Shown here piece by piece: positions 30,018 to 63,803 of a stretch of 64,000 bases of DNA. Made by a program: the position numbers and the translations under genes. Numbering within the stretch: position 1 is the first letter of the stretch; every line of letters begins with the position of its first letter. Location of the stretch: assembly GCA_036785375.1 (NCBI GenBank), contig JAWMAR010000508.1:930001-994000 (forward strand), written 5' to 3'. Source of the stretch: Leucoraja ocellata (Eukaryota). The notes under the pieces were generated by a model, which had not been told where the DNA came from, did no database searches, and saw nothing but the letters and a program-made list of their open reading frames with translations.

Positions 30018-30844
30018 TCACAGTTTAAGGATAAAGGACAAATCTTTAAGGATATGGGATGATGTTCCTCCAATTTGCATTTAGCCCCACTCTGACAGTA
30101 GAGGAGACCTAGGACAGAAAGGTCAGTGTGAGAATGGGACGGGTAATTAAAGTGTTTGGCAACCGGGAGATCAGGTAGGTCCAGGCAGACTGAGCAAAGG
30201 TGTTCAGCGAAATGATCATAGCAGCCCCAGCACCGACCCCTGCGGAACTCCGCTAGTCACTGGCAGCCAACCAGTAAATGCCTCCTTGCCCGTAAACACT
30301 TCCGAGTTGCTGCTGGTGGTACCTTGGAGAAGGAGAGGAGGAAGAACGATCGCTCGATCATTGTCCGATCCCAGATATCCCGTCAGTTACCCGATCTGGA
30401 AGAGAAAGTAATTGCAGTCAAACTCCAGCGACCAATATACATAAAACGAAACCGATGTAATGCTGAGGTTCTACAAGGCAGTGGTCAGGCCACATTTGGA
30501 ATATTGTGAGCAATTTTGAGCCCATATCAGATGAAGCATGTGCAGGCTCTGGATGGGATCAGAGGAGGTTTACAGCAATGAGTGTGTTTACATACGATGA
30601 GCGTTTGACGGCACTGGGCTTTTACTCGCTGGAGTTTAGAAGAATGAGGGGGGGACCTCAATGAAACTTACCGAACAGTGAAAGGTTTGGAGAGTGTGGA
30701 TGCGGAGAGGATATTTCCACTAGTGGGAGAGTTCACAGTCTCAGAATTAAAGGACGTTCTTTTAGGAAGGAAATTATGTGGAATTTCTTTAGTCAGAGGG
30801 TGGTGAATCTGTGGAATTCTTTGACGCAGACGGCGGTGGAGGCC

Positions 30845-32697: not shown

Positions 32698-32715
32698 AAT
32701 AATAATAATAATAAC

Positions 32716-32789
<74 letters not shown>

Positions 32790-32925: not shown

Positions 32926-33391
32926 ATGACACTAAGCTGGGGGGGCAGTGTTAGCTGTGAGGAGGATGCTAGGAGACTGCAGGGTGACTTGGATAGGCTG
33001 GGTGAGTGGGCAAATGTTTGGCAGATGCAGTATAATGTGGATAAAGGTGAGGTTATCCATTTTGGTGGCAAAAACAGGAAAGCAGACTATTATCTAAATG
33101 TTGGCCGATTGGAAAGGGGGAGATGCAGCGAGACCTGGGTGTCATGGTACACCAGTCATTGAAGGTAGGCATGCAGGTGCAGCAGGCAGTAAAGAAAGCG
33201 AATGGTATGTTAGCTTTCATTGCAAAAGGATTTGAGTATAGGAGCAGAGAGTTTCTACTGCAGTTGTACAGGGTCTTGGTGAGACCACACCTGGAGTATT
33301 GCATACAGTTTTGGTCTCCAAATCTGAGGAAGGACATTATTGCCATAGAGGGAGTGCAGAGACGGTTCACCAGACTGATTCCTGGGATGTC
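32926..33391 (+). mobile_element. CR1 family A internal fragment
   Basis: ORFs 32920-33162 and 33123-33440. Confidence 0.88.
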
Positions 33392-37356: not shown

Positions 37357-38102
37357 GGGCGCTGTTCTGGCGGCAGCCATGGCAGCAGCGCGTCAGCCTT
37401 TCAATTTTATTTTTTTATTTTTAGTATGTTTTAAGTGTGTATTTAGTGGGGATTTTTGTGTTTTGTGTGGGGGGTGGTGTGGGTGGTGTAAGGGGAAACC
37501 GCTTTGGTCGCCTCCTCCATGGAGAGGCGACTTTTTCCAGGTCGCCTTCCGCGTGGCCTACCATCAAGGATCAGCGAGGCCTTTCCCGGAGACGTGCCCG
37601 GGGCTTCAGCGGCAGGCGCAGCGTGGACTCGGCGTGGAGCGGGTGAGCCCTCCCTGGGGCTCGCTGGAGGGGAGTGCTCCATTTCACTGGCCTGGGGCAA
37701 CCGGCATCCTGAAGCCGCAGCCTGAAGCCGCGGTCTGCAGAGTTCCAGCTGCTGCAGCGTCTACAGCCCGGGATCCCTCGTGGGGGACCCGGGGGAAGAA
37801 GAAGCCGCCATTGCCGGCCCGCGGGCCCGGCATGGACTTACCATCACCCCTGGAGGGGAGCTTCGACCGCCGGCCCTGCAGTCTACGGTGCTTCTGGCTG
37901 CGGTGGGGACTTTAAATCTCAACCGCCGGCCTGCGGCCTACACAATCTTGAAGCCGCGGTCTCCGGTGAGGAAAGACCGATCCTGGACTGCACTCTGGAC
38001 TCTGGTCGTCTCCACCTGGGGGGGGGGGGGATGGAGGAGGACGGCCAAAAAATGTTGTGCCTTCCACCATAGTGATGAATGCTGTGGTGGATGTTTATGT
38101 TA
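37357..38102 (+). mobile_element. GC-rich non-autonomous retroposon
   Basis: GC 5' end, T/GT tract, GC-rich body, hairpin-TGTTTATG motif; 3' end cut by CR1. Confidence 0.6.
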
Positions 38103-38347
38103 CATAGAAACATAGAAACATAGAAATTAGGTGCAGGAGTAGAGGCCATTCGGCCCTTCGAGCCTGCACCGCCATTCAACATGATCATGGCTGATCATCC
38201 AACTCAGTATCCTGTACCTGCCTTCTCTCCATACCCCCTGAGCCCCTTAGCCACAAGGGCCACATCTAACTCCCTCTTAAATATAGCCAATGAACTGGCC
38301 TCAACTACCTTCTGTGGCAGAGAATTTCAGAGATTCACCACTCTCTG
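38103..38347 (-). mobile_element. CR1 family A tail
   Basis: (CATAGAAA)n tail. Confidence 0.88.
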
Positions 38348-40316
38348 CATGTAATCTGAGTGTTCGTTCCTTTGCTTGCTGTAAGTTCTGGTAATGCAAA
38401 GGCCCATACTGCTGGGAATGCAGCTACTATTTGCAAATTACACTCGCTGTTTGCCTGATAGATGGCTAGAATTTGACTATCAGGTCATTGCAGGCTTAAT
38501 TAAATATTGTCGTTTGCCCCTTGGCAAAGTCACCAACGTATTTACTGTTTTTGATAGTAAATTCTAGGTAATCAATTACCCTTGCAGGTGTCAATTTTGA
38601 TTTAACTGGATGGATGAGGTAACCAAGTCTTTCAAACAGGGTTTTGGTTTGCTTCTGCCAATTCTTGGTGACTCCAAAATGAAAATGTCCTCCAAATATG
38701 CCATTACTATGTGGTTCTGAGACCTTTGTAGACCCAGAATTGCTTTCCGTAGTTTCGTCAATAGTCTAGGAGCTGATGTCAACCCATTGGGCAGAGCCAT
38801 GCCATCCAGTTAAACTTCAAATATCTCCTGTTCTTAGTGAATAGACACCGAATAGTATGCATCTTTGAGGTTGATGCATGCCACGTGACCATTTTATAGG
38901 AAGCTCCTATAAAACAGTAGTTAGACCGTAACAAAAAATTGCTGTTCTGAAAGTCTGTACTGCACAAACGAGTTAAACCTGGATGAAGGTATTCCCTACC
39001 ATTTACATGGTAAATGGTAGGGAATTACATGGTAAATGGTAGGGGATTACATGGTAATGGTACGGAATTAAAGAATACAGTTGAACAGAGGGATCTGGGT
39101 ATAACCGTGCATAGTTCCTTGAAGTGGAATCTCATATAGATAGGGTGGTAAAGAAAGCTTTTGGTATGCTAGCCTTTATAAATCAGAGCATTGAGTATAG
39201 AAGCTGGGATATAATGTTAAAATTGTACAAGGCATTGGTGAGACCAAATTTGTAGTATGGTGTACAATTTTGGTCGCCCAATTATAGGAAGGATGTCAAC
39301 AAAATAGAGAGAGTACAGAGGAGATTTACTAGAATGTTACCTGGGTTTCAACAACTAAGTTACAGAGATAGGTTGAATAAGTTAGGTCTTTATTCTCTGG
39401 AGCGCAGAAGGTTAAGGGGGGACCTGATAGAGGTCTTTAAAATAATGAGAGGGATAGACAGAGTTGATGTAGACAAGCTTTTCCCTTTGAGAATAGGGAA
39501 GATTCAAACAAGAGGACATGACTTCAGAATTAAGGGACAGAAGTTTAGGGGTAATATGAGGGGGGACTTCTTTACTCAGAGAGTGGTAGCGGTGTGGAAT
39601 GAGCTTCCAGTGGAAGTGGTGGAGGCAGGTTCATTGGTATCATTTAAAAATAAATTGGATAGGCATATGGATGAGAAGGGAATGGAGGGTTATGGTATGA
39701 GTGCAGGCAGGTGGGACTAAGGGGAAACAAAGTTGTTCGGCACGGACTTGTAGGGCCGAGATGGCCTGTTTCCGTGCTGTAATTGTTATATGGTTATATG
39801 GTTATAAGTGACATCATCCATCTGTCACCTGTCCTGGAAGGCAATCCTGCCCAAAATACTGGGCCTGCCTTGAAGACAATTCCGGATCGAGTGCCAAGTC
39901 TGCTTGGAACCTCTGTATGTTGTGCAGTAAAAAATAATCACATGTTGTTATCTGTTTTTTAAAACCAGATCTGAAATTCATGTTATTGTCATTTTGAACA
40001 AAAACACAAGAGTAAAAATTACCAACATGTAACTGGTCCACAATCCCTTGTTTCAGTAAACCCAGACCCACCTATCTCCATGGCTACCGGTGGTCTTGTG
40101 GTAAGCCCAAAGGCCCCTAATGCGAGTTCCTTTTCACTCCTTGATTGGGCAGTAGGACTGGTAGGGAGTGTGGATGCCATGTTTCTCCTGACCTCTGCTT
40201 GGGTCTTGGTCTGAAAACCTCATCATACTGAGCCTGCCTTGTCGGACAATTCTGGCCATAATTCTGAGTCTGCCTTGAAAGACGACTCTGATCATATTTC
40301 CGTGCCCAGCTTTCAA
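38348..40316 (-). mobile_element. Decayed DIRS RT-region relic interrupted by CR1-B
   Basis: ALPNGLTSAPRLLTK...VMAYLEDIFI (degenerate YLDD); VTLP.GK-like sequence resembles the 6859-8061 ORF. Confidence 0.75.
39003..39806 (+). mobile_element. CR1 family B 3' fragment
   Basis: ORF 39334-39720; tail; ~22-bp triplication at 5' end. Confidence 0.92.
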
Positions 40317-40319
40317 GAC

Positions 40320-41190
40320 AAGTCAAGTCAAGTCAAGTTTATTTGTCACATACACATACGAGATGTGCAGTGAAATGAAAGTGGCAATGCTCGCGGACTT
40401 TTGTGCAAAAGACAAACAACCAAACAAACTATAAACACAATTATAACACACATATTCTGTCCAAAGCAAGCGCTGTCTGCGGAGGGCGCTCAGCATCGCC
40501 AAGGACTGCTCTCACCCCAACCATGGACTGTTTAACCTCCTACCATCCGGGAGGCGCTACAGGTCTCTCCGTTGCCGAACCAGCAGGTCGAGGAACAGCT
40601 TCTTTCCGGCGGCTGTCACTCTACTCAACAACGTACCTCGGTGACTGCCAATCACCACCCCCCCCCCCCCGGACACTTATTATTATTTATTCAAATCGTT
40701 TGCTATGTCGCTCTTCCAGGGAGATGCTAAATGCATTTCGTTGTCTCTGTACTGTACACTGACAATGACAATTACAATTGAATCTGAATCTAAATCTGAA
40801 TCTGAATCGGTATTCTTTTACATAATAAATAATGGAAGGAAAAACGTTCAGTAGAGTTAGTCCCTGGTGAGATAGGCGTTTACAGTCCGAATTGCCTCTG
40901 GGAAGAAACTCCTCCTCAACCTCTCCGTTCTCACCGCATGGCAACGGAGGCGTTTGCCTGACCGTAGCAGCTGGAACAGTCCGTTGCAGGGGTGGAAGGT
41001 GTCTCCCATGATTTTGTTTGCTCTGGAGTTGCACCTCCTGTTGTATAGTTCCTGCAGGGGGGTGAGTGAAGTTCCCATAGTGCGTTCGGCCGAACGCACT
41101 ACTCTCTGCAGAGCCTTCTTGTCCTTGTCAGTGCAATTCCCAAACCAGATGGTAATGTTCCCGGACAAGATGCTTTCCACCGCCACTGCC
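40320..41190 (-). mobile_element. Rex-Babar LINE (second subfamily) with nested Rex insertion
   Basis: ORF 40857-41192 (HPCNGLFQLLRSGKR); (TTGAC)n tail at 40320; nested + strand Rex 3' end at 40456-40808 flanked by TATTCT. Confidence 0.8.
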
Positions 41191-41263
41191 ATTTACGTTT
41201 GTGGTTGCAACATGACAAAATGTGGAAAAATTCAAGGGGTATGAATACTTTTGCAAGCCACTG
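41190..41263. mobile_element. Tc1/mariner terminal fragment
   Basis: Reverse complement reads CAGTGGCTTGCAAAAGTATTCATACCCCTTGAA, a typical fish Tc1 TIR. Confidence 0.65.
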
Positions 41264-41368
41264 CAAATCTAACTCTCTTTTGAAAACACCCAGTGAATTG
41301 GCCTCCACTGAATTCTGTGGCAGAGAATTCCATAGATTCACAACTCTGTGTGAAAAAGTGTTTCCTCA

Positions 41369-42195
41369 TCAGATTCAGATTCAGATTCAATTTTAATTGT
41401 CATTGTCAGTGTACAGTACAGAGACAACGAAATGCATTTAGCATCTCCCTGGAAGAGCGACATAACAAACGATTTGAATAAATAATAATAAGTGTCTGGG
41501 GGGGTGGGTGGTGATTGGCAGTCACCGAGGTACGTTGTTGAGTAGAGTGACAGCCGCCGGGAAGAAGCTGTTCCTCGACCTGCTGGTTCGGCAACGGAGA
41601 GACCTGTAGCGCCGCCCGGATGGTAGGAGGGTAAACAGCCCATGGTTGGGGTGAGAGCAGTCCTTGGCGATGCTGAGCGCCCTCCGCAGACAGCGCTTGC
41701 TTTGGACAGACTCAATGGAGGGGAGCGAGGAACCGGTGATGCGTTGGGCAATTTTCACCACCCTCTGCAATGCCTACCGGTCGGAGACAGAGCAGTTGCC
41801 ATACCATACTGTGATGCAGTTGGTAAGGATGCTCTCGATGGTGCAGCGGTAGAAGTTCACCAGGATCTGAGGAGACATATGGACCTTCTTCAGTCTCCTC
41901 AGGAAGAAAAGATGCTGATGAGCATTCTTGATCAGATTTGAGGTATTGTGGGTCCAAGAGAGGTCATCGGAGATGTTGACTCCCAGGAACCTGAAGCTAG
42001 AAACACGTTCCACCTCCGTCCCGTTAATGAGGATGGGGGTGTGCGTGCCGCCTCTGGACTTCCTGAAGTCTACAATGAGCTCCTTGGTCTTCTTGGAGTT
42101 AAGGGCCAGGTTGTTGTCAGAGCACCATGCTGCTAAGTGCTGGACCTCCTCCCTGTAGGCCAGCTCATCGTTGTTGCTGATGAGGCCAATCATCA
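41369..42195 (-). mobile_element. Rex-Babar LINE 3' fragment inserted in old CR1
   Basis: ORFs 41774-42247 (LNSKKTKELIVDFR) and 41522-41770; (TGAATC)n tail. Confidence 0.9.
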
Positions 42196-42434
42196 GCATC
42201 GCAGTCCTAAATGGCCGACCCCTTATTCTTAAACTGTGTGTGACCACTGGTTCTGGACTCCGCCAACATCAGGAATATTTTTCCTGCATCTAGCTTGTCC
42301 AATCCCTTCAGAAGTTTATATGTTTGTATAAGATGCCCTCTCATCCTTCTAAATTCCAGTGAATGCAAGCCCAGTTGACCCATTCTTTCATCATATGTCA
42401 GTCCCACCATCCCGGGAATTAACCTAGTAAAAAT

Positions 42435-42710
42435 GTGTAGAATAGAACTGCAGATGCTGGTTTAAATTGAAGGTAGGCACAAAATGCTGGAGTAATTCAG
42501 CGGGACAGGCTGCATCTCTCGAGAGGAAGAATGGGTGATGTTTCGGGTCGAGACCCTTCTTCAGAACTGGTGAACCTACTCGGCAATCCCTCAATAGCAA
42601 AAAAACTAAACAAACTCTCCAGAGATGCTGCCTGTCCTGCTGAGTTACTCCAGCACTTTGAGTCTATCTTCAGTGTAAACCAGCATCTGCAGTTACCTTA
42701 ATACACAAGG
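42435..42710. mobile_element. Inverted pair of Penelope-like short repeats
   Basis: Left copy carries CTGAAGA-GGGTCTCGACCC-GAAAC on the minus strand. Confidence 0.6.
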
Positions 42711-42749
42711 TATTTCAGTGATCAGACTCCGTACAAATTCACAATTCAA

Positions 42750-43418
42750 TAACCATATAACCATATAACCATATAACAATTACAGCACGGAAACAGGCCA
42801 TCTCGACCCTTCTAGTCCGTGCCGAACACATATTCTCCACTAGTCCCTTATACCTGCGCTCAGACCATAACCTTCCATTCCTTTCCCGACCATATAACTA
42901 TCCAATTTATTTTTAAATGATAAAAACGAACCTGCCTCCACCACCTTCACTGGAAGCTCAATCCACACATCCACCACTCTCTGAGTAAAGATGTTCCCCC
43001 TCATGTTACCCCTAAACTTCAGTCCCTTAATTCTCAAGTCATGTCCCCTTGTTTGAATCTTCCCTACTCTCAGTGGGAAAAGCTTTTCCACGTCAACTCT
43101 GTCTATCCCACTCATTATTTTAAAGACCTCTATCAAGTCCTCCCTTAACCTTCTGCGCTCCAAAGAATAAAGCCCTAACTTGTTCAACCTTTCTCTGTAA
43201 CTTAGTTGCTGAAACCCAGGCAACATTCTAGTAAATCTCCTCTGTACTCTCTCTATTTTGTTGACAACCTTCCTATAATTAGGCGACCAAAATTGTACAC
43301 CATACTCCAGAATTGGCCTCACCAATGCCTTGTACAATTTTAACATTACATCCCAACTTCTATACTCAATGCTCTGATTTATAAAGGCCAGCACACCAAA
43401 AGCTTTCTTTACCACCCT
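42750..43418 (-). mobile_element. CR1 family B' 3' fragment
   Basis: 191-aa ORF 42840-43415; tail. Confidence 0.92.
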
Positions 43419-43452
43419 AATAAACTGGTCGTTGACTGACAGAATTACATAC

Positions 43453-43509
43453 CTTGGTTCTGTCCGCTGCTCGTCTCTGGAATATTGACTGACAAACTCT
43501 TGTCCTCAG
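43453..43509 (-). other. Candidate 57-nt exon (phase 1-1: EDKSLSVNIPETSSGQNQ)
   Basis: Non-repetitive island with CAG acceptor and AAG|GTATGT donor; open in phase 1. Confidence 0.35.
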
Positions 43510-43886
43510 CTGCCGTCACAGTGTGGAGAACACAAATGTGTAGAGGGGACAATTTACATCAAGAAACGGAAATAAAATAAGGAAGTATTCTTTTATCGGC
43601 AAATAGTTAACCCCTTTCATCCCTGTGGGGGCATGACTGATTTAGTGGAGGGAGTGCTGTAATGTGGGATGAGTCCCTCACTATCTCTGCAAACCTACTT
43701 TGGCTCTGAAACTATTCCTGGTCTCTGTAACCCCCTCCCCACCGGCCCCTACTCCCCTCCCTGTCAAATTGGAGGTATTGAATCTAGCGAGTGTGACAGT
43801 CTCCTGTTCCACAGTGCTCATTTGAACAAGACTGCACTGATTCAAGAATTGTGTGGGAAAGAACTGTAGATACTGGTTTAAAGTGA

Positions 43887-44571
43887 AGTGCAGCAGGCAG
43901 TGAAGAAAGCGAATGGAATGTTAGCTTTCATAGCAAAATGATTTGAGTATAGGAGCAGGAGGTTCTCCTGCAGTTGTACAGGGCCTTGGTGAGACAACAC
44001 CTGGAGTATTGCGTACAGTTTTGGTCTCCAAATCTGAGGAAGGACATTATTGCCATAGAGGGAGTGCAGAGAAGGTTCACCAGACTGATTCCTGGGGTGT
44101 CAGGACTGTCTTATGAAGAAAGACTGGATAGACTTGGTTTATACTCTCTAGAATTTAGGAGATTGAGAGGGGATCTTATAGAAACTTACAAAGTTCTTTT
44201 GGGTTGGACAGGCTAGATGCAGGAAGATTGTTCCGATGTTGGGGAAGTCCAGGACAAGGGGTCACAGCTTAAGGATCAAGGGGAAATCCTTTAAAACCGA
44301 GATGAGAAGAACTTTTTTCACACAGAGAGTGGTGAATCTCTGGATCTCTCTGCCGCAGAGGGTAGTCGAGGCCACAGTTCATTGGCTATATTTAAGAGGG
44401 AGTTAGATGTGGCCCTTGTGGCTAAGGGGATCAGAGGGTATGGAGAGAAGGCAGGTACGGGATACTGAGTTGGATGATCAGCCATGATCATATTGAATGG
44501 CGAATGGTGCAGGCTCGAAGGGCCGAATGGCCTACTCCTGCACCTAATTTCTATGTTTCTATGTTTCTATG
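43887..44571 (+). mobile_element. CR1 family A 3' fragment
   Basis: ORF 43974-44216; tail. Confidence 0.9.
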
Positions 44572-44572
44572 T

Positions 44573-44730
44573 CTTTAGAATGTGGGAGGAAACCGAAGAT
44601 CTCGGAGAAAACCCACGCAGGTCAAGGGGAGAACGTATAAATTCCGTACAGACAGCGCCCGTAGTCAGGATCGAACCCAGGTCTCTGGAGCTGTGAGGCT
44701 GCAATTCTAACGCTGCACTACCGTGCCGTG
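44573..44730 (-). mobile_element. HE1/V-SINE 5' part
   Basis: Reverse complement gives tRNA-like head with gttcgatcc B box. Confidence 0.75.
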
Positions 44731-45187
44731 CCTTTCAGCTATCCCCCTCTGATCTTAATTTTCACCCGTAGGTTGTTCCTAGTGTATGAGTAAGAGTCAT
44801 GGAAACAATGAAGTTGCAGAGACTTCATAAGGAAGTGGACAGAAGTATGAACAGGTAACTTAATGCGAAAAATCACGATGTCCTTTATACAGAAGGGAAC
44901 ATGTTTCGAACAGTTCCCCAAAGTTGAGGGTGCAGAACAGTCCTTTTATTCATCAAGAAAGCAAAGAGCTGGAGGAACTCAGCGGATCTGCGGATGGAGT
45001 GGACTAGTGTTTACACAAACAACATTTCAGATTGAGTCATAGAATGCAAAGTCATAGTCATAGAGTGATACAGGGTGGAAACAGGCCCTTCGGCCCAACT
45101 TGCCCACACTGGCAAACATGTCCCAGCTACACTAGTCCCACCTACCCACGTTTGGTCCATATCCCTCCAAACCTGTCCTACCCATAT

Positions 45188-45835
45188 ACATAGAAACATA
45201 GAAAACATAGAAATTAGGTGCAGGAGTAGGCCATTCGGCCCTTCGAGCCTGCACCATTCGCCATTCAATATGATCATGGCTGATCATCCAACTCAGTATC
45301 CTGTACCTGCCTTCTCTCCATACCCCCTGATCCCCTTAGCCACAAGGGCCACATCTAACTCCCTCTTAAATATAGCCAATGAACTGGCCTCAACTACCCC
45401 CTGTGGCAGAGAGTTCCAGAGATTCACCACTCTCTGTGTGAAAAAAGTTCTTCTCATCTCGGTTTTAAAGGATTTCCCCCTTATCCTTAAGCTGTGACCC
45501 CTTGTCCTAGACTTCCCCAACATCGGGAGCAATCTTCCTGCATCTAGCCTGTCCAACCCCTTAAGAATTTTGTAAGTTTCTATAAGCTCCCCTCTCAGTC
45601 TCCTAAATTCTAGAGAGTATAAACCAAGTCTATCCAGTCTTTCTTCATAAGACAATCCTGACATCCCAGGAATCAGTCTGGTGAACCTTCTCTGCACTCC
45701 CTCTAAGGCAAGAATGTCCTTCCTCAGATTTGGAGACCAAAACTGTATGCAATACTCCAGGTGTGGTCTCACCAAGACCCTGTACAACTGCAGTAGAACC
45801 TCGTTGCTCCTATACTCAAATCATTTTGCTATGAA
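45188..45835 (-). mobile_element. CR1 family A 3' fragment
   Basis: ORF 45293-45787; tail. Confidence 0.92.
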
Positions 45836-46079
45836 TATCCCTGTTTGTGTAAAACAGCCCTATCGAAATATATGCTTGCATTGAGTTTGCTCTCTATATT
45901 AGCATTATCACTAGAACTTATGAAGTGGCAGAAACTCCAGAGGCCCAACGACCTCTTGTTATATGAGGAAGTAGACAGAAGTTGTGACAGGAAATCTAGT
46001 GCTAAAAATGAAAATGTTCTTTCACAGAATGATGGGAAATGTATCACAGAGTTCCCCAAAGCCGAGGGTGCATAATACT

Positions 46080-46296
46080 CCCTTTAATGCTTTTAATGTA
46101 TTTTAATTTTTAATTTAATGTAATTTAATTCAATTTAATAACACTCCCTTTAATGCTTTTAATGTCTTTTTAATTTTTACTGTTTTTACAGTCCTGTGGT
46201 CTTAATGGTTTAAGTAGTTTGTAATAACTTTTTGTTGACTTCCCATGTACAGCACTTTGTGGTAACTGATGTTGTCTAAAAGCGCTTTATAAATAA

Positions 46297-46335
<39 letters not shown>

Positions 46336-46352
46336 ATTATTATTATTATTAT
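46080..46352 (+). mobile_element. L2-type 3' UTR with (ATT)n tail
   Basis: tgtacagcactttg...ataaataaattattatt as in the L2 at 52617-53437. Confidence 0.65.
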
Positions 46353-46689
46353 TCATCGAGCAAACAAATGCTGGGGGAACTCGGCGGATCTAGGGGTGGT
46401 TAGACACAAAGGGCTGGAGTAACTCAATGGGATGGGCAGCATCTCTAGAGAGGAGGATTTCGTGTCGAGGGTGACATTTCAGACTGAGAGTCAGGGGAGA
46501 GGGAAATTAGAGATATGGACGGTGATGTATATATAGAAGAAATGAATGAAAGATGCAAAATAAGTAACAATGGTAAAGGAAGCAGGCCGTTGTTAGCGAT
46601 TTACTATATGAGAACGAGAAGCTGGTGCAACTTGGGTGGGGGAGGGATGGAGAGAGCGGAAACGCAGCGGTTACTTGAAGTTACTTGAA

Positions 46690-47562
46690 GGCGGTAGGCG
46701 GCGCGACTCTCGTCAGCAGCGGTCTCTGCAGCCCGTCTGCGTTTTTATTATTTTCTGTCTATGTTTTTATGTGTTTTTTGTTATTTTTTGTTGGGGTGTG
46801 TGTGTGTGGGGGGGGAGGGGGGGGGGGGGGTGAGGGTGGGGGTGGGAGGGAGGGGGTAACTTTTAAATCTCTCCCTGCACGGGAGACCCGACCTTTTCTT
46901 TGTCGGGTCTCCGTTGTCGTTGGGGCTGCAACGAGGAGCGGCCTCCAACAGGAGAAGACCGGGGGCTCTGGTGCCGACGACTCACCTCACCGTCGCGGAG
47001 CTGGCCGAGTCCAGAGCGGGTGGAGCGGTGGTGGAGCGCTGCTGCTGCTGCGGCCCGACCTCCGGAGGCTGCAACTGCAGGTCTGGCGGACGGCGGCACC
47101 GGGAGCCCGCGGGTCCCTGGAGGGAGACCGCTTTTCAGGGCTCTCGCAACGGCGACTTATCCCGCCCGAGTTGCGGGGTTGAAGAGCTCCTAGAGCGGGG
47201 CCTTACAGCACCGCCCCGCGCGGCTTGGAATGGCCGCGGGACTCTGCGAGCGCACGCCGGTGGCTCCAACACCAAGACCCGGTGTGCGACCTCGCACCAC
47301 CCGGCGTGGCTTTAATGGCCGCGGGACAATCACCATCGCCAGCCGGGGCTTTGACTTTGACTCTGACATGGGGGGGGGGGGGGGGGAGAGTGCAGTGGAG
47401 ATATGTTTTTTTGGCCTTCCATCACAGCGATGTGATGGATGTTCATGTAAATTATGTTGTGTCTTGGGTCTATTTGTTTGTAATGTATGGCTGCAGAAAC
47501 AGCATTTCGTTTGGACCTCAAGGGGTCCAAATGACAATTAAATTGAATCTTGAATCTTGAAT
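46690..47562 (+). mobile_element. GC-rich non-autonomous retroposon with Rex-like 3' tail
   Basis: Ends gcatttcgttt...aatgacaattaaattgaatcttgaatc; CTTGAAGTTA direct repeat on both flanks. Confidence 0.7.
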
Positions 47563-47880
47563 CTTGAAGTTAGAGAAATCAATATTCATATCATACCGAG
47601 AGGTGGCAGAGGGAGGCGGTGCAAAAGCATCGACATTAGTGAGCAAGTCCGTCTGACACAACTAAAATTGCTCATGATATGGTCTGTTATCACGAGGGTT
47701 TATGGTCAAGAGGGTGAATTTAGTTGAAGGAGGGACCACAGATGCTGGCTTAAACCAATGATAGACACAAAAAGCTGGAGTCACTCAATAAGTCAGTTTT
47801 ATTTAGTTTAGAGATACAGTGCAGATGCAGCGTGGAAACAGGCCCTTCAGCCCTTCAGCCCAGAAGATGGCCATCGTAGA

Positions 47881-48875
47881 AAAGGATTTGAGTATAGCAT
47901 TTTTCATAGCAAAAGGATTTGAGTATAGGAGCAGGGAGGTTCTACTGTAGTTGTACAGGGTCTTGGTGAGACCACACCTGGAGTATTGTGTACAGTTTTG
48001 GCCTTCATAACAAGAGTTGATGAGTTTCGGAGCGGGCAGAAGCGTGGCAGATGCAGTTTAATGCGGATAAATGTGAGGATATCCACTTTATGGTGGCAAA
48101 AACAGGAAGGCAGACAATTATGTGAATGGTAGGCGATTAGGAAAAGGGGAGATGCAACGAGACCTGGGTGTCATGGTACACCAGTCATTGAAAGTAGGCA
48201 TGCAGGTGCAGCAGGCAGGGAAGAAAGCCAATGGTATGTTAGCATTCATAGCAAAATGATTTGAGAATAGGAGCAGGGAGGTTCTACTTCAGTTGTACAG
48301 GGTCTTGGTGAGACCACACCTGTAGTATTGCGTACAGTTTTGGTCTCCAAATCTGAGGAAGGACATTATTGCCATGGAGCGAGTGCAGAGAAGGTTCACC
48401 AGACTGATTCCTGGGATGTCAGGACTGTCTTATGAAGAAAGACTTGGTTCATACTGTCTAGAATTTAGGAGACTGAGAGGGGATCTTATAGAAACTTACA
48501 AAATTCTTAAGGGGTTGGACAGGCTAGATGCAGGAAGATTGCTCCCGATGTTGGGGAAGTCCGGGACAAGGGGTTCACAGCTTAAGGATAAGGGGGGAAA
48601 TCCTTTAAAACCGAGATGAGAAGAACTTTTTTCACACAGAGAGTGGTGAATCTCTGGAACTCTCTGCCGCAGAGGGTAGTCGAGGCCACAGTTCATTGGC
48701 TATATTTAAGAGGGAGTTAGATGTGCCCCTTGTGGCTAAGGGGATCAGGGGGTATGGAGAGAAGGCAGGTACGGGATACTGAGTTGGATGATCAGCCATG
48801 ATCATATTGAATGGCGGTGCAGGCTCGAAGGGCCGAATGGCCTCTACTCCTGCACCTAATTTCTATGTTTCTATG
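47881..48875 (+). mobile_element. CR1 family A, 5'-rearranged
   Basis: ORF 48374-48619; tail. Confidence 0.88.
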
Positions 48876-49240
48876 ATCACCCGTTCACACTGATTTCAGG
48901 AAGGTCAGAGGGGGCAGACATACCCCCCATCCATATAAACGGGACTGAGGTGGAGCGCGTCTCCAACTACAAATTCCTCGGGTACACATCTTGTTGGCTG
49001 TAACGTCCCCTGATAGTGGTGTTCACTGCATTGTGTTGGGTGGCAACCTTACTGCCAGGAATCGTACCTCTGACACATGCCCTCCATCCCTTGAGGTATG
49101 CTCCACGCTATACCCTCAGCCTCGGCATCAGATTTACACTGACCCGGCATGTTCTCCTCCTCCTCCATAAGGAAGACATTAAGCAGCTACAAGGCGCAGC
49201 TGGCGCGGCCTCTCAAACAGGCCCACACTTCAGGGTCAGA

Positions 49241-50192: not shown

Positions 50193-50245
50193 AACAGCTG
50201 GGAAGAAACTGTTGAGTGAATGAGTGAATTATACAGGACACTTAC

Positions 50246-50611
50246 CAATAACACGGAGCTGTGTTGGAGGGTGGTAGTTGTAACGATTTCCATATCCAAA
50301 ATGAACTCCGAAAAAATAAGGACCTGTATCTTGCTGCGTGACGTTGTCTATATCCAGGGAACAGTCGTTGTCGCTCATGACTCCTGACAGCCGGGTCCGA
50401 TGCTGAAACTGTGTTGATATTTCACTGGGATACCTGGAGTGGAAGGCTACAGACCGATAGTTCTGTATCTCACTGTTTAACCAGATTCCAGTCCGTGGTT
50501 TTTTATTTAGATACCACTGGTACCTGTAGTGACACGGAATCCGTGCACACAAACCATTCTGCGCTGTCACACGTGGTGGATTGTCCGCAATCCACTGTCC
50601 CGGCACCACGG
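50246..50611 (-). CDS. Exon encoding a Siglec/MAG/CD22-like V-set Ig domain
   Basis: 366 nt, phase 1-1, acceptor ttccttctctcctcAG, donor G|GTAAGT; W..P..V....GLC..IPC, GIW, F..R..L.G, DCSL.I..V...D.GPYFF; Cys in B and E strands, none in F strand (Siglec pattern). Confidence 0.88.
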
Positions 50612-50747: not shown

Positions 50748-51510
50748 GCCTCACTCCTCACCCCCCCCCCCTCACACAGTCCGTCACTCCCACCTCACCC
50801 CCCCCCACAGTGCGTCACTCCCTCCCACAGTGTCTCACTCCCTCCTCACCACCCCTCCCACAGTGTGTCACTCCCTCATCACTGCTCCTCCCACAGTGTG
50901 TGTCACTCCCTACAACAGTGTGTCACTCTTCACTGCCCCCCCCACAATGAGTCACTCCACCCTCACCCCCCTCCCAAAGTGCCTCACTCCCACCTCCCCC
51001 CCCACAGTGTGTGTAACTCCCTCTTCACCCCTCTCCCACAGTGCGTCACTCCCTCCCACAGTGTCTCACTCCCTCCTCACCACCCCTCCCACAGTGCGTC
51101 ACTCACACCTCACCGCCCCTACCACAGTGCGTTACTCCCTTCCACGGTGTCTCACTCCCACCTCACCCCTCCCTCCCACAGTGTGTGTCACTCCCTCCCA
51201 CAGTGTGTGTCACTCCCTCCTCACACCCCTCCCAAAGTGCCTCACTCCCACCTCCCCCCCCCCCGCAGTGTGTGTAACTCCCTCTTCACCCCTCTCCCAC
51301 TGTGCGTCACTCCCTCCCACAGTGCGTCATTCCTCTCACAGTGCATCACTCCCTCCTCACCCCCCCCCCTCCCACAGTGCTTCACTCCCACCTCACCGCC
51401 CCTCCCACAGTGCGTTACTCCCTCCCACGGTGTCTCACTCCCACCTCACCCCTCCCTCCCACAGTGTGTGCCACTCCCTCCTCACCGCACCTCCCACAGT
51501 GCGTCACTCC
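50748..51510. repeat. C-rich minisatellite (core ctcccacagtgYgtcactcc)
   Basis: More than 20 units of ~20-35 bp with higher-order duplications. Confidence 0.92.
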
Positions 51511-51559
51511 CATGGACCAGTAGAGTGTCCCTTGTGGCCAGGGTCCGGAGGGAAAGGAG

Positions 51560-54749: not shown

Positions 54750-55270
54750 TGGTGTGCAGGAAGGAACTGCCGGTGCTGGTTTGAACTGAAGATTGACACA
54801 AAAATAGGGAGAAACTCAGCAGGACAGGCAGCATCTCTGGAGAGAAGGAATGTGTGATGTTTCGATTCAAGTCCCATCTTCAGACTGAAAGTCACGGGAG
54901 AGGGAAACGAGAGATATAGACAATGATGTAGAGAGACACAGAACAATGAATGAAAGATATGCAAAAAAGTAATGATGACAAAAAAACAGGCCATTGTTAG
55001 CTGTTTGTTGGGTGAGAACAAGAAGCTGGTGCGACTTGTGTGGGTGAGGGATGGAGAGAGTGGGAATGCAGGATTTACTTGAAGTGGGAGAAATCAATAT
55101 TGCCCAAGCAAAATATGGGATGATGTTCCTCCAATTTGCATTTAGCCCCACTCTGACAGTAGAGGAGACCTAGGACAGAAAGGTCAGTGTGAGAATGGGA
55201 AGGGCGATTAAAATGTTTGGCAACCGGGAGATCAGGTAGGTCCAGGCGGACTGAGCGAAGGTGTTCAGTG
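54750..55270. mobile_element. Penelope-like element 3' region
   Basis: Homologous to 46400-46685; hammerhead-like core at ~54855-54885 (minus). Confidence 0.5.
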
Positions 55271-57629
55271 AAACGATCGTAGCAGCCCCAGAACCGACCC
55301 CTGCGGAACTCCGCTAGTCACTGGCAGCCAACCAGTAAATGCCTCCTTGCCCGTAAACACTTCCGAGTTGCTGCTGGTGGTACATTGGAGAAGGGAGAGG
55401 AGGAAGAACGATCGCCCGATCATTGTCCGATACCAGATATCCCGTTAGTTACCCGATCTGGAAGAGAAAGTAATTGCAGTCAAACTCCAGCGACCAATAT
55501 ACATACAACGAAACGGATGTAATGCTGAGGTTCTACAACGCAGTGGTCAGGCCACATTTGGAATATTGTGAGCAATTTTGAGCCCCATATCAGATGAAGC
55601 ATGTGCAGGCTCTGGATGGGATCAGAGGAGGTTTACAGCAATGAGTGTGTTTACATACGATGAGCGTTTGACGGCACTGGGCCTTTACTCGCTGGAGTTT
55701 AGAAGAATGAGGGGGGGACCTCAATGAAACTTACCGAACAGTGAAAGGTTTGGAGAGTGTGGATGCGGAGAGGATATTTCCACTAGTGGGAGAGTTCACA
55801 GTCTCAGAATTAAAGGACGTTCTTTTAGGAAGGAAATTATGTGGAATTTCTTTAGTCAGAGGGTGGTGAATCTGTGGAATTCTTTGACGCAGACGGCGGT
55901 GGAGGCCAATTCAAACTTTCAAGGTCAGTTTATGGTCTCATGTGCCATTTACGGTACTGTGAAGTTCGAATAACCAAAAAAAAGCAACAAGGGACACAAC
56001 TGCATAAAAGTCACCATAAACATCCACCACAGCGGACTCCCCACGATCCTCTCCGTGACCGAAGGCAATAAAGTCCAAACTTCTTCTTCCTCTTTTATTC
56101 TCCCATGGTTGGGGCAATCGAACTATCCGCAGTCGGGAGGATTGAAGCTCCCGCAGCCAGCGGTGGAAGACCCCGCGTTGGGGTGATCGAAGACTCTGCG
56201 TCGGGGCAGTGGAAGACCCCGTGTCGGGGCGGTGGAAGACCCCGTGTCGGGGCGGTGGAAGACCCCGCGTTGGGGCGATCGAAGACGCCGCGTCGGGGCG
56301 ATCGAAGACCCCGCGTCGGGGCGATCGAAGACCCCGCATCGGGGCGATCGAAGCTCCTGCGGTTTGGAGTTTCCCGAAGTCGGTCTCTAACCAGCGACCA
56401 CAAGCTCCACAACGTTAAAGTCCACAGGCACCCATGGGTGGAGCCCCAAACTTGACCCCGACAGGGATCGTAAGCTCCGTGATGGTAAGTCCTGCAGACA
56501 CCCGGGGTACAGCTCTCCAAGTCGGTCTCATGCAAATGCCACCAACTCCTCGATGTTAGACCGCAGTGCGGACGGAAATACGATACGGAAGAAAATCGCA
56601 TCTCCGTTGAGGTAAGTGATTATAAAAAGTTTCCCACAACTCCCGCCCACTCCCTACATAAAACAAGCTAAAGAACACTAAAAACATGCATTTAACACAC
56701 ACAAACAGACAACAAAACAGGAAGGGACAGACAGACTGTTGGCGAGGCAGCCATTGCTAAGTGGTGGTTAAGGCAGTGGATATTTTTAAGGCTGAGATAG
56801 AAAGATTATGAATTAGTGCGGATGTCAGGGGTTATGGGGAGAAGGCAAGAGAATGGGGTTAAGAGGGAGTGATAAATCAGCCATGATTGAATGGGGGAGT
56901 AGACTTGATGGGCCAAATGGCCTAATTCTACTATCACTTATGACCTCCTGAGCAATCTAGTTGCCTTCTTTTGGTTTTTAAAAGCTTCCCAATCGTTAGA
57001 ACTCCTGCTAATCTTTGCCAAGTTACATGATGGCGCATGGTGGTGCAGCGGTAGAGACCCGACTTTGATCCTGACTACAGGTGCTGTCTGTACGGAGTTT
57101 GCACGTTCTCTCTGTGATCTGCGTGGATTTTCTCCGGGGTATCTGGTTTCCTTCCACGCTCCAAAGATGTATGGGTTTGTAGGTTAATTAGACTTCGGTA
57201 AAATAAAAAATATTTGTCCGAAGTGAGTGTGTAGGATAGCGTTGGTCACTGGTCAGCATGGGCCGAAGGGCCTGTTTCTGCACAGTATCACTAAACTAAA
57301 CACAGAACTTGTTTGTGAACGGGTGATCGATTGTCGGTGTGGACTCGATGGGCTGAAGGGCCTGTTTCCGCGCTGTGTCTCTAAACTAGAAAACTAAACT
57401 CAACTGACATGAACGGCTACTGTTCTGCCATGTGGCTACCTCCCACAAGGTGCCTGGTTCATGAATTAGGGAAGGTATCTGAGGAACAGCTTAGGGTTGG
57501 TTCTAAGCTGATCATTGCTAAAGTTGAAGTAAGAGGCTATTTATACAGAGGTTGATGAGGGGTTGTGTGGATATGTGGAACAAGATGCCGGAGGAAGTAG
57601 TTGAGGCAAGTACAATAACAACAAAATAA

Positions 57630-58500
57630 CTGTGGACTTCAGGAAGAAACAGACAACACACGCCCCACTCACCATCAATGGCAGTGCAGTGGAGTCTGTG
57701 AAAAGCACCAGGTTCCTGGGAGTACACATCACAGATGATCAGAGATGGTCCACCAACACCATCTCCCTTTTCTAGAAGGCACAGCAACGCCTCCACTTCC
57801 TTCGACGGATGAGGAGAGCTGACCTCCCCCCTTCTGCCCTCACGACTTTTTACAGGGGTGCCATTGAGAGCATTCTTACCAGCAGTCTCTCAGTCTGGTA
57901 TAGCAGTTGCTCTGCTGCTGACCAGAAGGCCCTACAGAGAGTGGTGAGGACAGCGGAGAAGTTCACCAGATCACCCCAACCAGCAATCCAGGACGTATAC
58001 CCATCTCGCTGTCGCAAGAGAGCAAGCAATATCATCAAAGACACCACCCACCCAGCACACAAACTGTTCACCCTCCTACCTTCCGGTAAGCGCTACCGCA
58101 GCATGCAGAGCAAAAGCACCAGATTCAAAAACAGCTTTTTACCTCAGGCCATCAGACTACTCAACACACTTAAGAAAATTCCATGAACAGTACCCAAACA
58201 AAGACAACAGACTGTGAAAATAACTTTGGCTCAATGTCTCCAGTAAGGAATTTGCACTTTTTCTATATTGCACCTTTCATTGTTGCACCCTGTTTAAAAT
58301 ACCTCAAAGGTTTTGCGACATTTTGGCATACTGTGAATATTTTAATATTTTAAATAATGTATGTCTATTGTCTATTTTTATTGGTATGTTGTCTGTCTAT
58401 GTTTTTAATATTACTTGCACATTTGGAGTATGGGGAAACGTAACTTCGATCCTCTGTGTAACTACTGTTGCATAATTGAATTGACAATAAAGTTTACTTT
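57630..58500 (+). mobile_element. Rex-Babar LINE 3' fragment
   Basis: ORF 57809-58186. Confidence 0.88.
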
Positions 58501-58711
58501 ACTAACATATCATTTAGTTCAGTTCAGTTTAGAGATACAGAGCGAATACAGGCCTTCGGCCCATCGAGTCCGCGCTGACTATCGATCAGCCGTTCACACA
58601 CTAGTTCTCACTTTAGTCAGTGGGTAGTGAATCTGTGGAATTCTTTGCCATAGCAGGCTGTGGAGAGCAAGTCAGTGGATATTTTTAAGGCTGAGATAGA
58701 TAGATTGTTGA

Positions 58712-59410
58712 TTAGAAACATAGAAACATAGAAATTAGGTGCAGGAGTAGGCCATTCGGCCCTTCGAGCCTGCACCATTCGCCATTCAATATGATCATGG
58801 CTGATCATCCAACTCAGTATCCCGTACCTGCCTTCTCTCCGTACCCCCTGATCCCTTTAGCCACAAGGGCCACATCTAACTCCCTCTTAAATATAGCCAA
58901 TGAACTGTTGCCTCGGCTACCCTCTGTGGCAGAGAGTTCCAGAGATTCACCACTCTCTGTGTGAAAAAAGTTCTTCTCATCTCGGTTTTAAAGGATTTCC
59001 CCCTTATCCTTAAGCTGTGACCCCTTGTCCTGGACTTCCCCAACATCGGGAACAATCTTCCTGCATCTAGCCTGACCAACCCCTTAAGAATTGTGTAAGT
59101 TTCTATAAGATCCCCTCTCAGTCTCCTAAATTCTAGAGAGTATAAACCAAGTCTATCCAGTCTTTCTTCATAAGACAGTCCTGACATCCCAGGAATCAGT
59201 CTGGTGAACCTTCTCTGCACTCCCTCGATGGCAATAATGTCCTTCCTCAGATTTGGAGACCTAAACTGTACGCAATACTCCAGGTGTCGTCTCACCAAGA
59301 CCCTGTACAACTGCAGTAGAACCTCTCTGCTCCTATACTCAAATCCTTTTGCTATGAAAGCTAACATACCATCTGCTTTCTTCACTGCCTGCTGCACCTT
59401 CATGCCTACT
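58712..59410 (-). mobile_element. CR1 family A 3' fragment (paralog 35677-36373)
   Basis: ORF 58876-59403. Confidence 0.9.
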
Positions 59411-59846
59411 TTCCTAAATTCTAGAGAGTATAAACCAGAATTTAGGAGATTGAGAGGGGATCTTCAGATTCAGATTCAATTTCAATTGTCATTGTCAGTG
59501 TACAGTACAGAGACAACGAAATGATCTTATAGATTAGAATAGATTATAGATAAGCTTTTCCAACTGAGAGTATGGACGATTCAAACAAGGGGACATGACT
59601 TGAGAATTAAGGGACTGAAGTTTAGGGGAAACATGAGGGGGAACTTCTTTACTCAGAGAGTGGTAGCTGTGTGGAATGAGCTTCCAGTGAAGGTGGTGGA
59701 GGCAGGTTCGTTTTTATCATTTAAAAATAAATTGGTTAGTTATATGGATGGGAAGGGAATGGAGGGTTATGGTCTGAGCGCAGGTATATGGGACTAGGGG
59801 AGATTATGTGCTCGGCACGGACTAGAAGGGTCGAGATGGCCTGTTT

Positions 59847-60284
59847 CTTGGTTTATACTCTCTAGAATTTAGGAGATTGAGAGGGGATCTTACAGAAACT
59901 TACAAAATTCTTAAGGGGTTGGACAGGCTAGATGCAGGAAGATTGTTCCCGATGTTGGGGAAGTCCAGGACAAGGGGTCACAGCTTAAGGATAAGGGGGA
60001 AATCCTTTAAAACTGATATGAGGAGAACATTTTTCACACAGAGAGTGGTGAATCTCTGGAACTCTCTGCCACAGAGGGTAGTTGAGGCCAGTTCATTGGC
60101 TATATTTAAGAGGGAGTTAGATGTGGCCCTTGTGGCTAAGGGGATCAGAGGGTATGGAGAGAAGGCAGGTACGGGATACTGAGTTGGATGATCAGCCATG
60201 ATCATATTGAATGGCGGTGCAGGCTCGAAGGGCCGAATGGCCTACTCCTGCACCTAATTTCTATGTTTCTATGTTTCTATGTTT
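59847..60284 (+). mobile_element. CR1 family A insertion private to copy 2
   Basis: Splits CR1-B' tail (cctgtttc|...|cgtgctgtaattg); absent near 35030. Confidence 0.85.
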
Positions 60285-62286
60285 CCGTGCTGTAATTGTT
60301 ATATGGTTATTTGTGCGGGTGTCAGGGGTTATGGAGAGAAGGCAGGAGAATGGGGTTAGGAGGGAGAGATAGATCAGCCATGATTGAATGGCGGAGTAGA
60401 CTTGATGGGTCAAATATGCTAATTCTGCTACTATCACATGACTGTAAATATCACCAACAACATACCCTGCATCAACTACATTGAAGCTGTGGTCAATAAG
60501 GCAGAGTAATGTCTCATCTTCCGCAAAAGATGAAGGAAGTTCGGCACTTCTCCACTGACTCACACCAACCTCTCCACACGAATTGTGAAAGAACTGTGTT
60601 ATGTTGCATCACATCCTGGTTTGGGACCAGCTCCGCTCAAGACCACAAGAAATTGCTGAGAGCTTAGTTTAGTTTAGTTTAGTTCAGAGATGCAGCGCTG
60701 ACACAGGCCCCCTCGCCCCATCGAGTCCATGCCGGCCACCGATCACCCATTCACATACTAGTTATACGTTTAGCTCTTGAGATACAATACAGAAACAGGA
60801 CCTTCCGCCCATCGAGTCCGTGCTGACCAATAATCACCCATTCACACACTATTTCTGTCTTTAGTTCTTGGGAAAGGGGGAGATGCAGTGAGACCTGGGT
60901 GTCATGGTGCACCAGTCATTGAAGGTAGGCATGCAGGTGCAGCAGGCAGTGAAGAAAGCGAATGGTATGTTAGCTTTCATTGCAAAAGGATTTGAGTATA
61001 GGAGCAGGGAGGTTCTACTGCAGTTGTACAGGGTCTTGGTGAGACCACACCTGGAGTATTGCGTACAGTTTTGGCCTGTTGGCCTTCATAACAAGAGGAG
61101 TTGAGTACAGGAGCAGGGAGGTTCTACTGCAGTTGTACAGCGTCTTGGTGAGACCACACGTGGAGTATTGCGTACAGTTTTGGTCTCCAAATCTGAGGAA
61201 GGACAGTATTGCCATAGAGGGAGTGCAGAGAAGGTTCACCAGACTGATTCCTGGGATGTCAGGACTGTCTTATGGATAAAGACTGGATAGACTTGGTTTA
61301 TACTCTCTAGAATTTATCTCGAAGGGCCGAATGGCCTACTCCTGCACCTAATTTCTATGTTTCTATGTTGAGGTACAATACAGAAACAGGACATAGAAAC
61401 ATAGACAATAGGTGCAGGAGTAGAAGCCATTCGGCCCTTCGAGCCTGCAGTAATCGCCATTCATTATGATCAGGGCTGATCATCCAACTCAGTATCCTGT
61501 ACCTGCCTTCTCTCCATATCCCCTGATCCCTTTAGCCACACGGGCCACATCTAACTCCCTCTTAAGTACAGCCAATGAACTGACCTCAACTACCTTCTGT
61601 GGCAGAGAATTTCAGAGATTCACCACTCTCTGCATGTAATCTGAGTGTTTGTTCCTTTGCTTGCTGTCAGTTCTGGTAATGCAAAGGCCCATACTACTGG
61701 GAATGCAGCTACTATTTGCAAATTACACTCGCTGTTTGCCTGATAGATGGCTAGAATTTGACTATCAGGTCATAGCAGGCTTAATTAAATATTGTTGTTT
61801 GCCCCAACGCAAAATCACCAACATATTTACTGTTTTTGATAGTAAATTCTAGGTAATCAATTACCCTTGCAGGTGTCAATTTTGATTTAACTGGATGGAT
61901 GAGGTAACCAAGTCTTTCAAACAGGGTTTTGGTTTGCTTCTGCCAATTCTTGGTGACTCCAAAATGAAAATGTCCTCCAAATATGCTATTGCTATGTGGT
62001 TCTGAGACCTTTTATACCCAGAATTGGTTTCCGTAGTTTCGTCAATAGTCTAGGAGCTGATGTCAACCCATGGGGCAGAGCCATGCCATCCAGTTAAACT
62101 TTACATATCTCCTGTTCTTAGTGAATAGACACCGAATGGTCTGCATCTTTGAGGTCGATGCATGCCATGTGACCATTTTATAGGAAGCTCCTATAGAACA
62201 GTAGTTAGACCGTAACAAAAAATTGCTGTTCTGAAAGTCTGTACTGCACAAATGAGTTAAACCTGGATGAAGGTATTCCCTGCCAT

Positions 62287-62980
62287 TTACATGGTAAATG
62301 GTAGGGAATTACATGGTAAATGGTAGGGAATTAAAGAATACAGTTGAACAGAGGGATCTGGGTATAACCGTGCATAGTTCCTTGAAGGTGGAATCTCATA
62401 TAGGTATAGGTGGTAAAGAAAGCTTTTGGTATGCTAGCCTTTATAAATCGCCCAATTATAGGAAGGATGTCAACAAAATAGCGAGAGTACAGAGGAGATT
62501 TACTAGAATGTTGCCTGGGTTTCAACAACTAAGTTACAGAGATAGGTTGAATAAGTTAGGTCTTTATTCTCTGGAGCGCAGAAGGTTAAGGGGGAACCTG
62601 ATAGAGGTCTTTAAAATGATGAGAGGGATAGACAGAGTTGATGTGGACAAGCTTTTCCCTTTGAGAATAGGGAAGATTTAAACAAGAGGACATGACTTCA
62701 GAATTAAGGGACAGAAGTTTAGGGGTAATATGAGGGGGAACTTCTTTACTCAGAGAGTGGTAGCGGTGTGGAATGAGCTTCCAGTGGAAGTGGTGGAGGC
62801 AGGTTCATTGGTATCATTTAAAAATAAATGGATAGGCATATGGATGAGAAGGGAATGGAGGGTTATGGTATGAGTGCAGGCTGGTGGGACTAAGGGGAAA
62901 ATAAATTTGTTCGGCACGGACTTGTAGGGCCAAGATGGCCTGTTTCCGTGCTGTAATTGTTATAAGGTTATATGGTTATA
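62287..62980 (+). mobile_element. CR1 family B fragment (paralog of 39003-39806)
   Basis: ORF 62298-62681 with internal deletion. Confidence 0.9.
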
Positions 62981-63180
62981 AGTGACATCATCCATCTGTC
63001 ACCTGTCCTGGAAGGCAATCCTGCCCAAAATACTGGGCCTGCCTTGAAGACAATTCCAGTCCGAGTTCCAAGTCTGCTTGGAACCTCTGTATGTTGTGCA
63101 GTAAAAAATAATCACATGTTGTTATCTGTTTTTTAAAACCAGATCTGAAATTCATGTTATTGTCATTTTGAACAAAAACA

Positions 63181-63803
63181 CATTGAGTATAGAAGCTGGG
63201 ATGTAATGTTAAAATTGTACAAAGCATTGGTGAGACCAAATCTGGAGTATGGTGTACAATTTTGGTCGCCAAATTATAGGAAGGATGTCAACAAAATAGT
63301 GAGAGTACAGAGGAGATTTACTAGAATGTTGCCTGGGTTTCAACAACTAAGTTACAGAGATAGGTTGAATAAGTTAGGTCTTTATTCTCTGGAGCGCAGA
63401 AGGTTAAGGGGGGACCTGATAGAGGTCTTTAAAATGATGAGAGGGATAGACAGAGTTGATGTGGACAAGCTTTTCCCTTTGAGAATAGGGAAGATTCAAA
63501 CAAGAGGACATGACTTCAGAATTAAGGGACAGAAGTTTAGGGGTAATATGAGGGGGAACTTCTTTACGCAGAGAGTGGTGGCGGTGTGGAATGAGCTCCC
63601 AGTGGAAGTGGTGGAGGCAGGTTCATTGGTATCAGTTAAAAATAAATTGGATAGGCATATGGATGAGAAGGGAATGGAGGGTTATGGTACGAGTGCAGGC
63701 AGGTGGGACTAAGGGGAAAAAAATTGTTCGGCATGGACTTGTAGGGCCGAGATGGCCTGTTTCCGTGCTGTAATTGTTATATGGTTATATGGTTATATGG
63801 TTA
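63181..63803 (+). mobile_element. CR1 family B insertion private to copy 2
   Basis: ORF 63206-63712; empty site at ~40005-40015. Confidence 0.9.

Follow-up and report, generated by a model that had tools for sequence, protein, structure and literature searches.

A Siglec-type V-set exon in the skate Leucoraja ocellata encodes glycine at the position of the essential arginine, and the question raised by this locus is whether the exon belongs to a receptor that has lost or changed its glycan binding or to a young pseudogene. The window analysed is a stretch of 64,000 nucleotides (C508:930001-994000, contig JAWMAR010000508.1), and 80 kb past it were also searched. The exon and its codon of interest are:

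50246..50611, minus strand: Siglec V-set exon of 366 nt, phase 1-1, with an open frame and intact AG/GT sites
50307..50309, minus strand: GGA codon (Gly101) at the essential-Arg position (MAG R118), placed by alignment and family codons

The exon is read on the minus strand, the plus-strand frame being full of stops, and its frame is open over 121 whole codons. Its splice sites are good, as the original prediction stated: the pyrimidine-rich acceptor reads ...TTCTCTCCTCAG/CC (the slash marks the exon boundary) and the donor reads TTG/GTAAGT, which agrees with the consensus at 7 of 9 positions. The only cysteines are Cys21 (GLC), Cys26 (IPC) and Cys83 (DCSL), and the F strand, which reads DTGPYFFGVHF, has none; both this Siglec cysteine pattern and the string GPYFFGVH, with GGA at 50309-50307, had been recognised in that prediction. 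The exon matches the Pfam V-set model above the cut-off (E=3e-10) and Ig_CD22 below it (E=9e-5). The 15 best PDB sequences for the V domain are all Siglecs (E<=3e-8), with Siglec-5 at 2.6e-13, MAG at 3.7e-13 and CD33 at 2.9e-12, while matches to the non-Siglec IgSF proteins SCN2B, PILR and JAML are much weaker (E>=1.4e-4). An AlphaFold model built from a 48-sequence alignment is confident (pLDDT 90.3) and has the Siglec fold; its top Foldseek matches are MAG, sialoadhesin and CD33, with E of 1e-11 and TM of 0.86-0.87 for MAG and sialoadhesin. The 54 database homologues come from sharks, skates and rays wherever an organism is named. Judged by its sequence, 50246-50611 is a region that encodes a cartilaginous-fish Siglec V-set domain, as had been proposed, and the alignments gave neither another arginine at the canonical site nor a grouping outside the Siglecs.

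Between CD33-related and MAG-like Siglecs, the similarity scores of the V domain are split, with near-equal bit scores for Siglec-5 (53.6) and MAG (53.1), and a full-length relative scores best to MAG. The domain shares the fold of MAG (Siglec-4) Ig1 and of CD33-related V-sets and keeps C21, C26, C83 and Y110, which aligns with MAG Y127; it differs from them in having glycine at R118, and its identity to them is about 30%. Cys21 aligns with MAG C37, which is described as disulfide-bonded to C165 in Ig2 (PMC5150538). The best single-domain relative is a RefSeq MAG-like model of the skate Leucoraja erinacea (P0004), which has the same leader and a V domain 88% identical, but has the arginine, three C2 domains and a TM segment with an 8-residue tail. 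The receptor type nearest to the copy studied here, referred to below as the Gly101 copy, has a tail of only these 8 residues. Another receptor type, found in P0009, P0018 and at C508:1188264 and 1222122, has a glutamate inside the TM segment and tyrosine motifs in the tail, and ITIM-like motifs are found in tails of skate and ray relatives.

Gly101 aligns with the arginine of YFFRVE in Siglec-5, YYFRGD in MAG and YFFRME in CD33, and residue 101 of the MAG chain becomes R118 once W22 is taken as its first residue, an offset of our own. MAG R118 is reported to bind the carboxylate of sialic acid through a salt bridge, and its change to alanine to abolish GT1b binding (PMC5150538). A misaligned arginine was considered and rejected, because none of the other arginines of the domain (13, 23, 29, 39, 52, 59, 71, 73, 109 and 119) aligns at this position. 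The assembly was searched with the V exon, which gave at least 116 matches, merged into at least 102 loci. The site is covered in 98 of the 101 paralogous loci among the matches listed, and 91 of these have arginine, encoded by AGA (85), AGG (5) or CGA (1); the rest have Lys (3), Thr, Ser, Met or Tyr (1 each), the Ser standing beside a frameshift and the Met and Tyr belonging to distant paralogs. The 60 V domains of the database homologues have 53 Arg, 4 Lys, 1 Thr, 1 Ser and one misaligned Pro at this site. Since the family codon is mostly AGA, Gly101 is, at the level of the assembly, a copy-specific one-base change of AGA to GGA, in agreement with the prediction that the codon stands one base from an arginine codon. 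By analogy with MAG R118, sialic acid binding would have been lost in this V domain.

The glycine codon could be an assembly error or the allele of a single individual, in which case the copy has the arginine and would still be truncated, as described below. In the public sequencing runs the entire aligned contig depth at 50309 carries the Arg base in 4/4 runs; at 98% likeness contigs over 50302-50314 are found in 0/4; and no contig with the Gly base is found among 7 runs, 2 of which gave no matching contig. One contig of depth 8 is identical to 50323-50382, with the private letters of M78 and D86 included, before it continues into 28 unrelated letters, and its run gave no contig bearing the Gly base. 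Against an error, no public run contains more than 0.20 of the words searched, so that none is apparently the source and the Arg contigs are likely to be paralogs; no RNA run was listed as containing them. Nine further codons of the V exon carry private changes, two of which also stand in the independent contig just described, and in long-read assemblies substitution errors are rarer than indels. An error or a private allele is therefore quite improbable.

The decisive features lie after the V exon, on the side where the rest of a receptor is expected:

47315..48994, minus strand: 1.68-kb junction in place of 13.9 kb of a paralog, common to a sister copy at C508:1366136
38110..47314, minus strand: region collinear (95-96%) with sequence downstream of the terminal exon of the paralog, without a Siglec exon
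30322..30361, minus strand: leader exon of the next tandem unit, with a 1-bp deletion; the unit runs into a 200-N stretch at 29818-30017

With all 54 homologues as queries, no C2, TM or tail exon was found past the V exon in the window, nor in C508:850001-994000 with 11 homologues and the post-V parts of 14, and a scan of 30020-50245 gave no acceptor followed by an in-frame hydrophobic segment. C2 exons behind a long intron were likewise looked for and not found across 130 kb of sequence, N stretches excepted. Among the matches listed, 93 of 100 family V exons have their first C2 exon within 20 kb, at a median distance of 972 bp and a maximum of 15.4 kb (the two most distant paralogs are left out of this count); the exon at 50246-50611 is one of the seven that have none within 20 kb. 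Neighbouring paralog units have the order leader, V, three C2 and TM-stop exon, and because the TM exon, with the stop, is the last coding exon in them, nothing is left here for splicing.

Compared with the paralog unit at C508:1060775, the window keeps the same order of sequence from 56200 to 48995 and resumes it past the junction, from 47314 to 38110. The paralog bases 1045615-1059548 (13.9 kb), which hold the three C2 exons and the TM/stop exon, have no counterpart in the window. This template unit is itself damaged, with a frameshift in V and a stop in one C2, and is thus usable for layout only. Below 38110 the second tandem unit is entered, 30052-40008 repeating 55113-63182 in pieces at 94-98%. 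L003 (C508:1366136, plus strand) has the same junction at 95.5% with gaps, 42 substitutions in 1660 positions giving 2.5% divergence. There are no N letters between 30018 and 64000, which, together with the second locus with the same junction, argues against misassembly.

The next unit leaves room for an alternative in which the leader-V cassette is spliced over more than 20 kb to C2 and TM exons of that unit at the 200-N stretch, giving a membrane Siglec that does not bind sialic acid. The strong V donor is consistent with such splicing, and the leader of the next unit stands just before the N stretch, so that its other exons may be unassembled. The short V-to-C2 distances of the family speak against it, as do the damaged leader donor of the Gly101 copy and the finding of no Siglec exon past the N stretch down to C508:850001; we regard such long-range splicing as very improbable.

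Over the 6.5 kb that remain of its contig, L003 has no C2 exon, and it keeps both the AGA arginine codon and an AAG/GT leader donor. Since it has the deletion junction together with the arginine, the deletion was likely earlier than the arginine change. A further copy, L007 (C3595:60538, plus strand), has leader and V exons with the arginine kept and no C2 exon within 9.7 kb. A nucleotide tree of 42 V exons groups the Gly101 copy with L002-L007, but support inside this clade is low, and the order of events is for this reason based on the shared junction and not on the tree.

The Gly101 copy is, with a probability of about three in four, a leader and V remnant without C2 and TM exons, likely a young truncated pseudogene, in which the change of AGA to GGA arose after truncation. 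It shows introns and disabling lesions, as a duplicated (unprocessed) pseudogene would; such a pseudogene would also give no functional product. The two readings of the original prediction thus fared differently: the receptor with changed binding is not supported, given the absent C2 and TM exons, the missing block and the changed leader donor, while the young pseudogene is the better supported of the two. Some observations stand against a pseudogene: the V frame and both V splice sites are intact, the model is confident, and the private changes of the exon, treated below, are unlike plain neutral decay.

The features before and directly after the V exon bear on what could be made from the remnant:

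55384..55423, minus strand: leader (signal-peptide) exon MIGRSFFLLSLLQ, found by homologue match
50229..50245, minus strand: read-through of the V donor, GKCPV followed by a stop, with AATAAA at 49850-49845

The leader donor at 55384 reads AAT/GTACCA, and AAG/G is found in the 19 other leader exons retrieved (19/19). The GT is kept, and the change of G to T at -1 is unique among the 20 leader exons retrieved, in a donor that was already off consensus at +4 to +6. With this change the predicted pairing with the 5' end of U1 goes from -5.6 to -0.7 kcal/mol. One of the substitutions in the V exon, S3P, would adjoin the likely signal cleavage site. Exonic and intronic matches of donor sites are reported to compensate each other, and the same study notes that a specific coupling of -1 and +5 is absent from its metazoan model (PMC10599564). 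The intron between leader and V holds a C-rich degenerate minisatellite (50750-51512), which is also present in close paralogs.

The Gly101 copy has six unique residues at columns conserved in at least 85% (S3P, P31Q, S32W, L78M, V86D and R101G), and the median of the 37 other copies is one; L013 and L096 also have six and L101 has eight. All 10 of its private codon changes are nonsynonymous (P about 0.05 if neutral), and private changes are more frequent in the V exon than in the flanks (9/364 vs 18/1940; Poisson p=0.008). Six sister copies show the same exon excess (Fisher p=0.55), so that the whole clade was subject to diversifying selection or to conversion, and dN/dS does not set the Gly101 copy apart from them. 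V exons diverge by 6-8% vs 1-5% in the collinear flanks, and in the clade nearest to the Gly101 copy dN exceeds dS in 14 of 15 pairs.

These changes can also be read as those of a secreted V-only Siglec, made by splicing of leader to V, read-through of the V donor into GKCPV and the stop, and use of the intronic AATAAA, in which loss of the arginine would have turned the protein into a decoy or a protein-binding form under diversifying selection. The open frame with a stop after five read-through codons and AATAAA about 400 nt further on, the confident Siglec fold, the 10:0 ratio of private codons and the two further V-only copies all agree with such a product; the read-through cysteine might pair with Cys21, and soluble Siglec-14, made by intron retention, is a reported precedent (PMC8787094). 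That secreted form of Siglec-14 likewise ends in few intron-encoded residues, but it comes from a complete gene that retains intron 5, whereas the Gly101 copy would leave the V domain only. Against a secreted product, the -1 G of an already poor leader donor is gone and S3P lies by the presumed cleavage site. The read-through codons are moreover ordinary donor sequence, which sister V-only copies read through alike, and the AATAAA recurs at an equal distance in a C2-bearing paralog, so neither feature is special to the Gly101 copy. The sister V-only copies retain the arginine. We consider a secreted product of this copy unlikely. With at least three V-only copies in the clade, the V-only form could be tolerated or used, and L003, with its intact leader donor, is the strongest candidate for a soluble protein of this kind. 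A bolder idea is that skates have a type of locus for secreted single-domain Siglecs, made by deletion of C2 and TM exons, and that the Gly101 copy is a soluble decoy with a new ligand under diversifying selection; this we hold to be rather unlikely as well.

Under the preferred reading of a truncated pseudogene, a tandem duplication in a birth-and-death Siglec cluster would have given rise to the Gly101 copy, and it would have separated from its sister at C508:1366136 after a deletion had taken everything past the V exon. With constraint relaxed from then on, the arginine, the leader donor and the region of signal cleavage (S3P) would have decayed. Such a copy would make no membrane receptor; any protein from it would lack the carboxylate salt bridge and have Cys21 unpaired, and the copy could serve at most as a donor in gene conversion, for which the nonfunctional allele SIGLEC16P, donor to SIGLEC11, is a described case (PMC5701461).

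Loss of the arginine in single Siglec paralogs is a known recurrent event: the critical arginine is reported as lost in human SIGLEC12 (R122C), in SIGLEC17, where it is tryptophan in a disrupted frame, and in ape SIGLEC5/14 (PMC7379906). The human pseudogene SIGLEC17 (Siglec-P3) is like the Gly101 copy in belonging to a fast-evolving cluster and in combining a mutated V-set arginine with a separate disabling lesion (PMC7379906). It differs in that a 1-bp deletion breaks its frame, while the frame of the Gly101 copy is open, its C2 and TM exons are gone and its leader donor is changed. Human Siglec-XII (R122C) and ape SIGLEC5/14 (Arg to His or Tyr) are also alike, a single codon ending sialic acid recognition as described in the same source (PMC7379906), but they keep C2, TM and tail and are expressible as receptors, and the Gly101 copy has none of these.

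The Gly101 copy alone matters little, since primates offer known cases in which one paralog of a Siglec cluster has lost the arginine and is also disrupted as a gene. Of more interest are the size of the family, with at least 102 loci and 42 distinct open V exons, and a paralog with threonine at the same site that is shared with the little skate. Fish genomes are described as having no inhibitory CD33-related Siglecs in a paper whose accessible text deals with salmonid and percid fishes and contains neither 'shark' nor 'cartilaginous' (PMC7226832). If cartilaginous fish have a large and fast-evolving Siglec cluster, this would matter for dating the origin of such clusters. No paper on a chondrichthyan Siglec expansion was found in the literature searched, although subscription papers, which are outside its scope, may cover it; Siglecs are mentioned once in the accessible text of a whale shark paper and twice in that of a 2026 IgSF survey. 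RefSeq already names many Siglec or MAG-like genes of cartilaginous fish.

The V loci are spread over many contigs (C508, C478, C352, C428, C1278 and others), and the assembly also gave at least 115 matches to the first C2 exon. Among the matches listed, 49 of 102 V loci pass a test for open frame and splice sites, 42 of them distinct; the test is crude, since a few loci scored as broken merely have no acceptor in the search window, and L078, scored as open, is missing a portion of the G strand. The assembly shows many frameshifts, which are possibly errors. A link between non-Arg residues and open or broken exons (7/49 vs 1/50, p=0.03) was not retained, since the rows, which include near-identical broken copies and two distant paralogs, are not independent of one another.

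The paralog with threonine (L013/L131, C504:1069014-1069370, minus strand) reads YFFTVKF at the essential-Arg site and has two extra cysteines. It has the same threonine as P0014 of Leucoraja erinacea, with 93% identity over the V match and 97-99% over two C2 exons. An N stretch at 1062804 interrupts its unit: leader, V and two C2 exons stand before it, a C2 exon and tail exons that carry ITIM-like motifs stand after it, and a full TM exon was not found. This paralog is a better candidate for a conserved Arg-less Siglec than the Gly101 copy.

Lysine (AAA) stands at the arginine site in the open V exons of L012, L019 and L055. The ray Siglecs P0002 and P0003, from Mobula and Hypanus, have four tandem V-set domains with Lys or Ser at some of the arginine sites. 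L120 (C1330:58225), which has Tyr there, and L121 (C288:633363) are distant Siglec-type V exons that match both V-set and Ig_CD22 in Pfam and may be orthologs of conserved Siglecs. Very similar V exons with one common early TGA and the arginine kept occur at L027, L028 and on many small contigs, and form either an amplified pseudogene clade or a set of unresolved haplotypes. The tandem units of L005 and L006 (C508:1002204-1031508) have identical V-exon translations, from either a recent duplication or an assembly duplication, and no leader exon was found for the lower unit. Retroelement remains lie on the minus strand of the window at 18724-21101, 15562-16944 and 5895-8115; they include a frame with aspartyl protease and DUF7041 (LTR type), a LINE reverse transcriptase and further frames that look DIRS-like by eye and have no Pfam match. 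Short LINE pieces make up most of the window.
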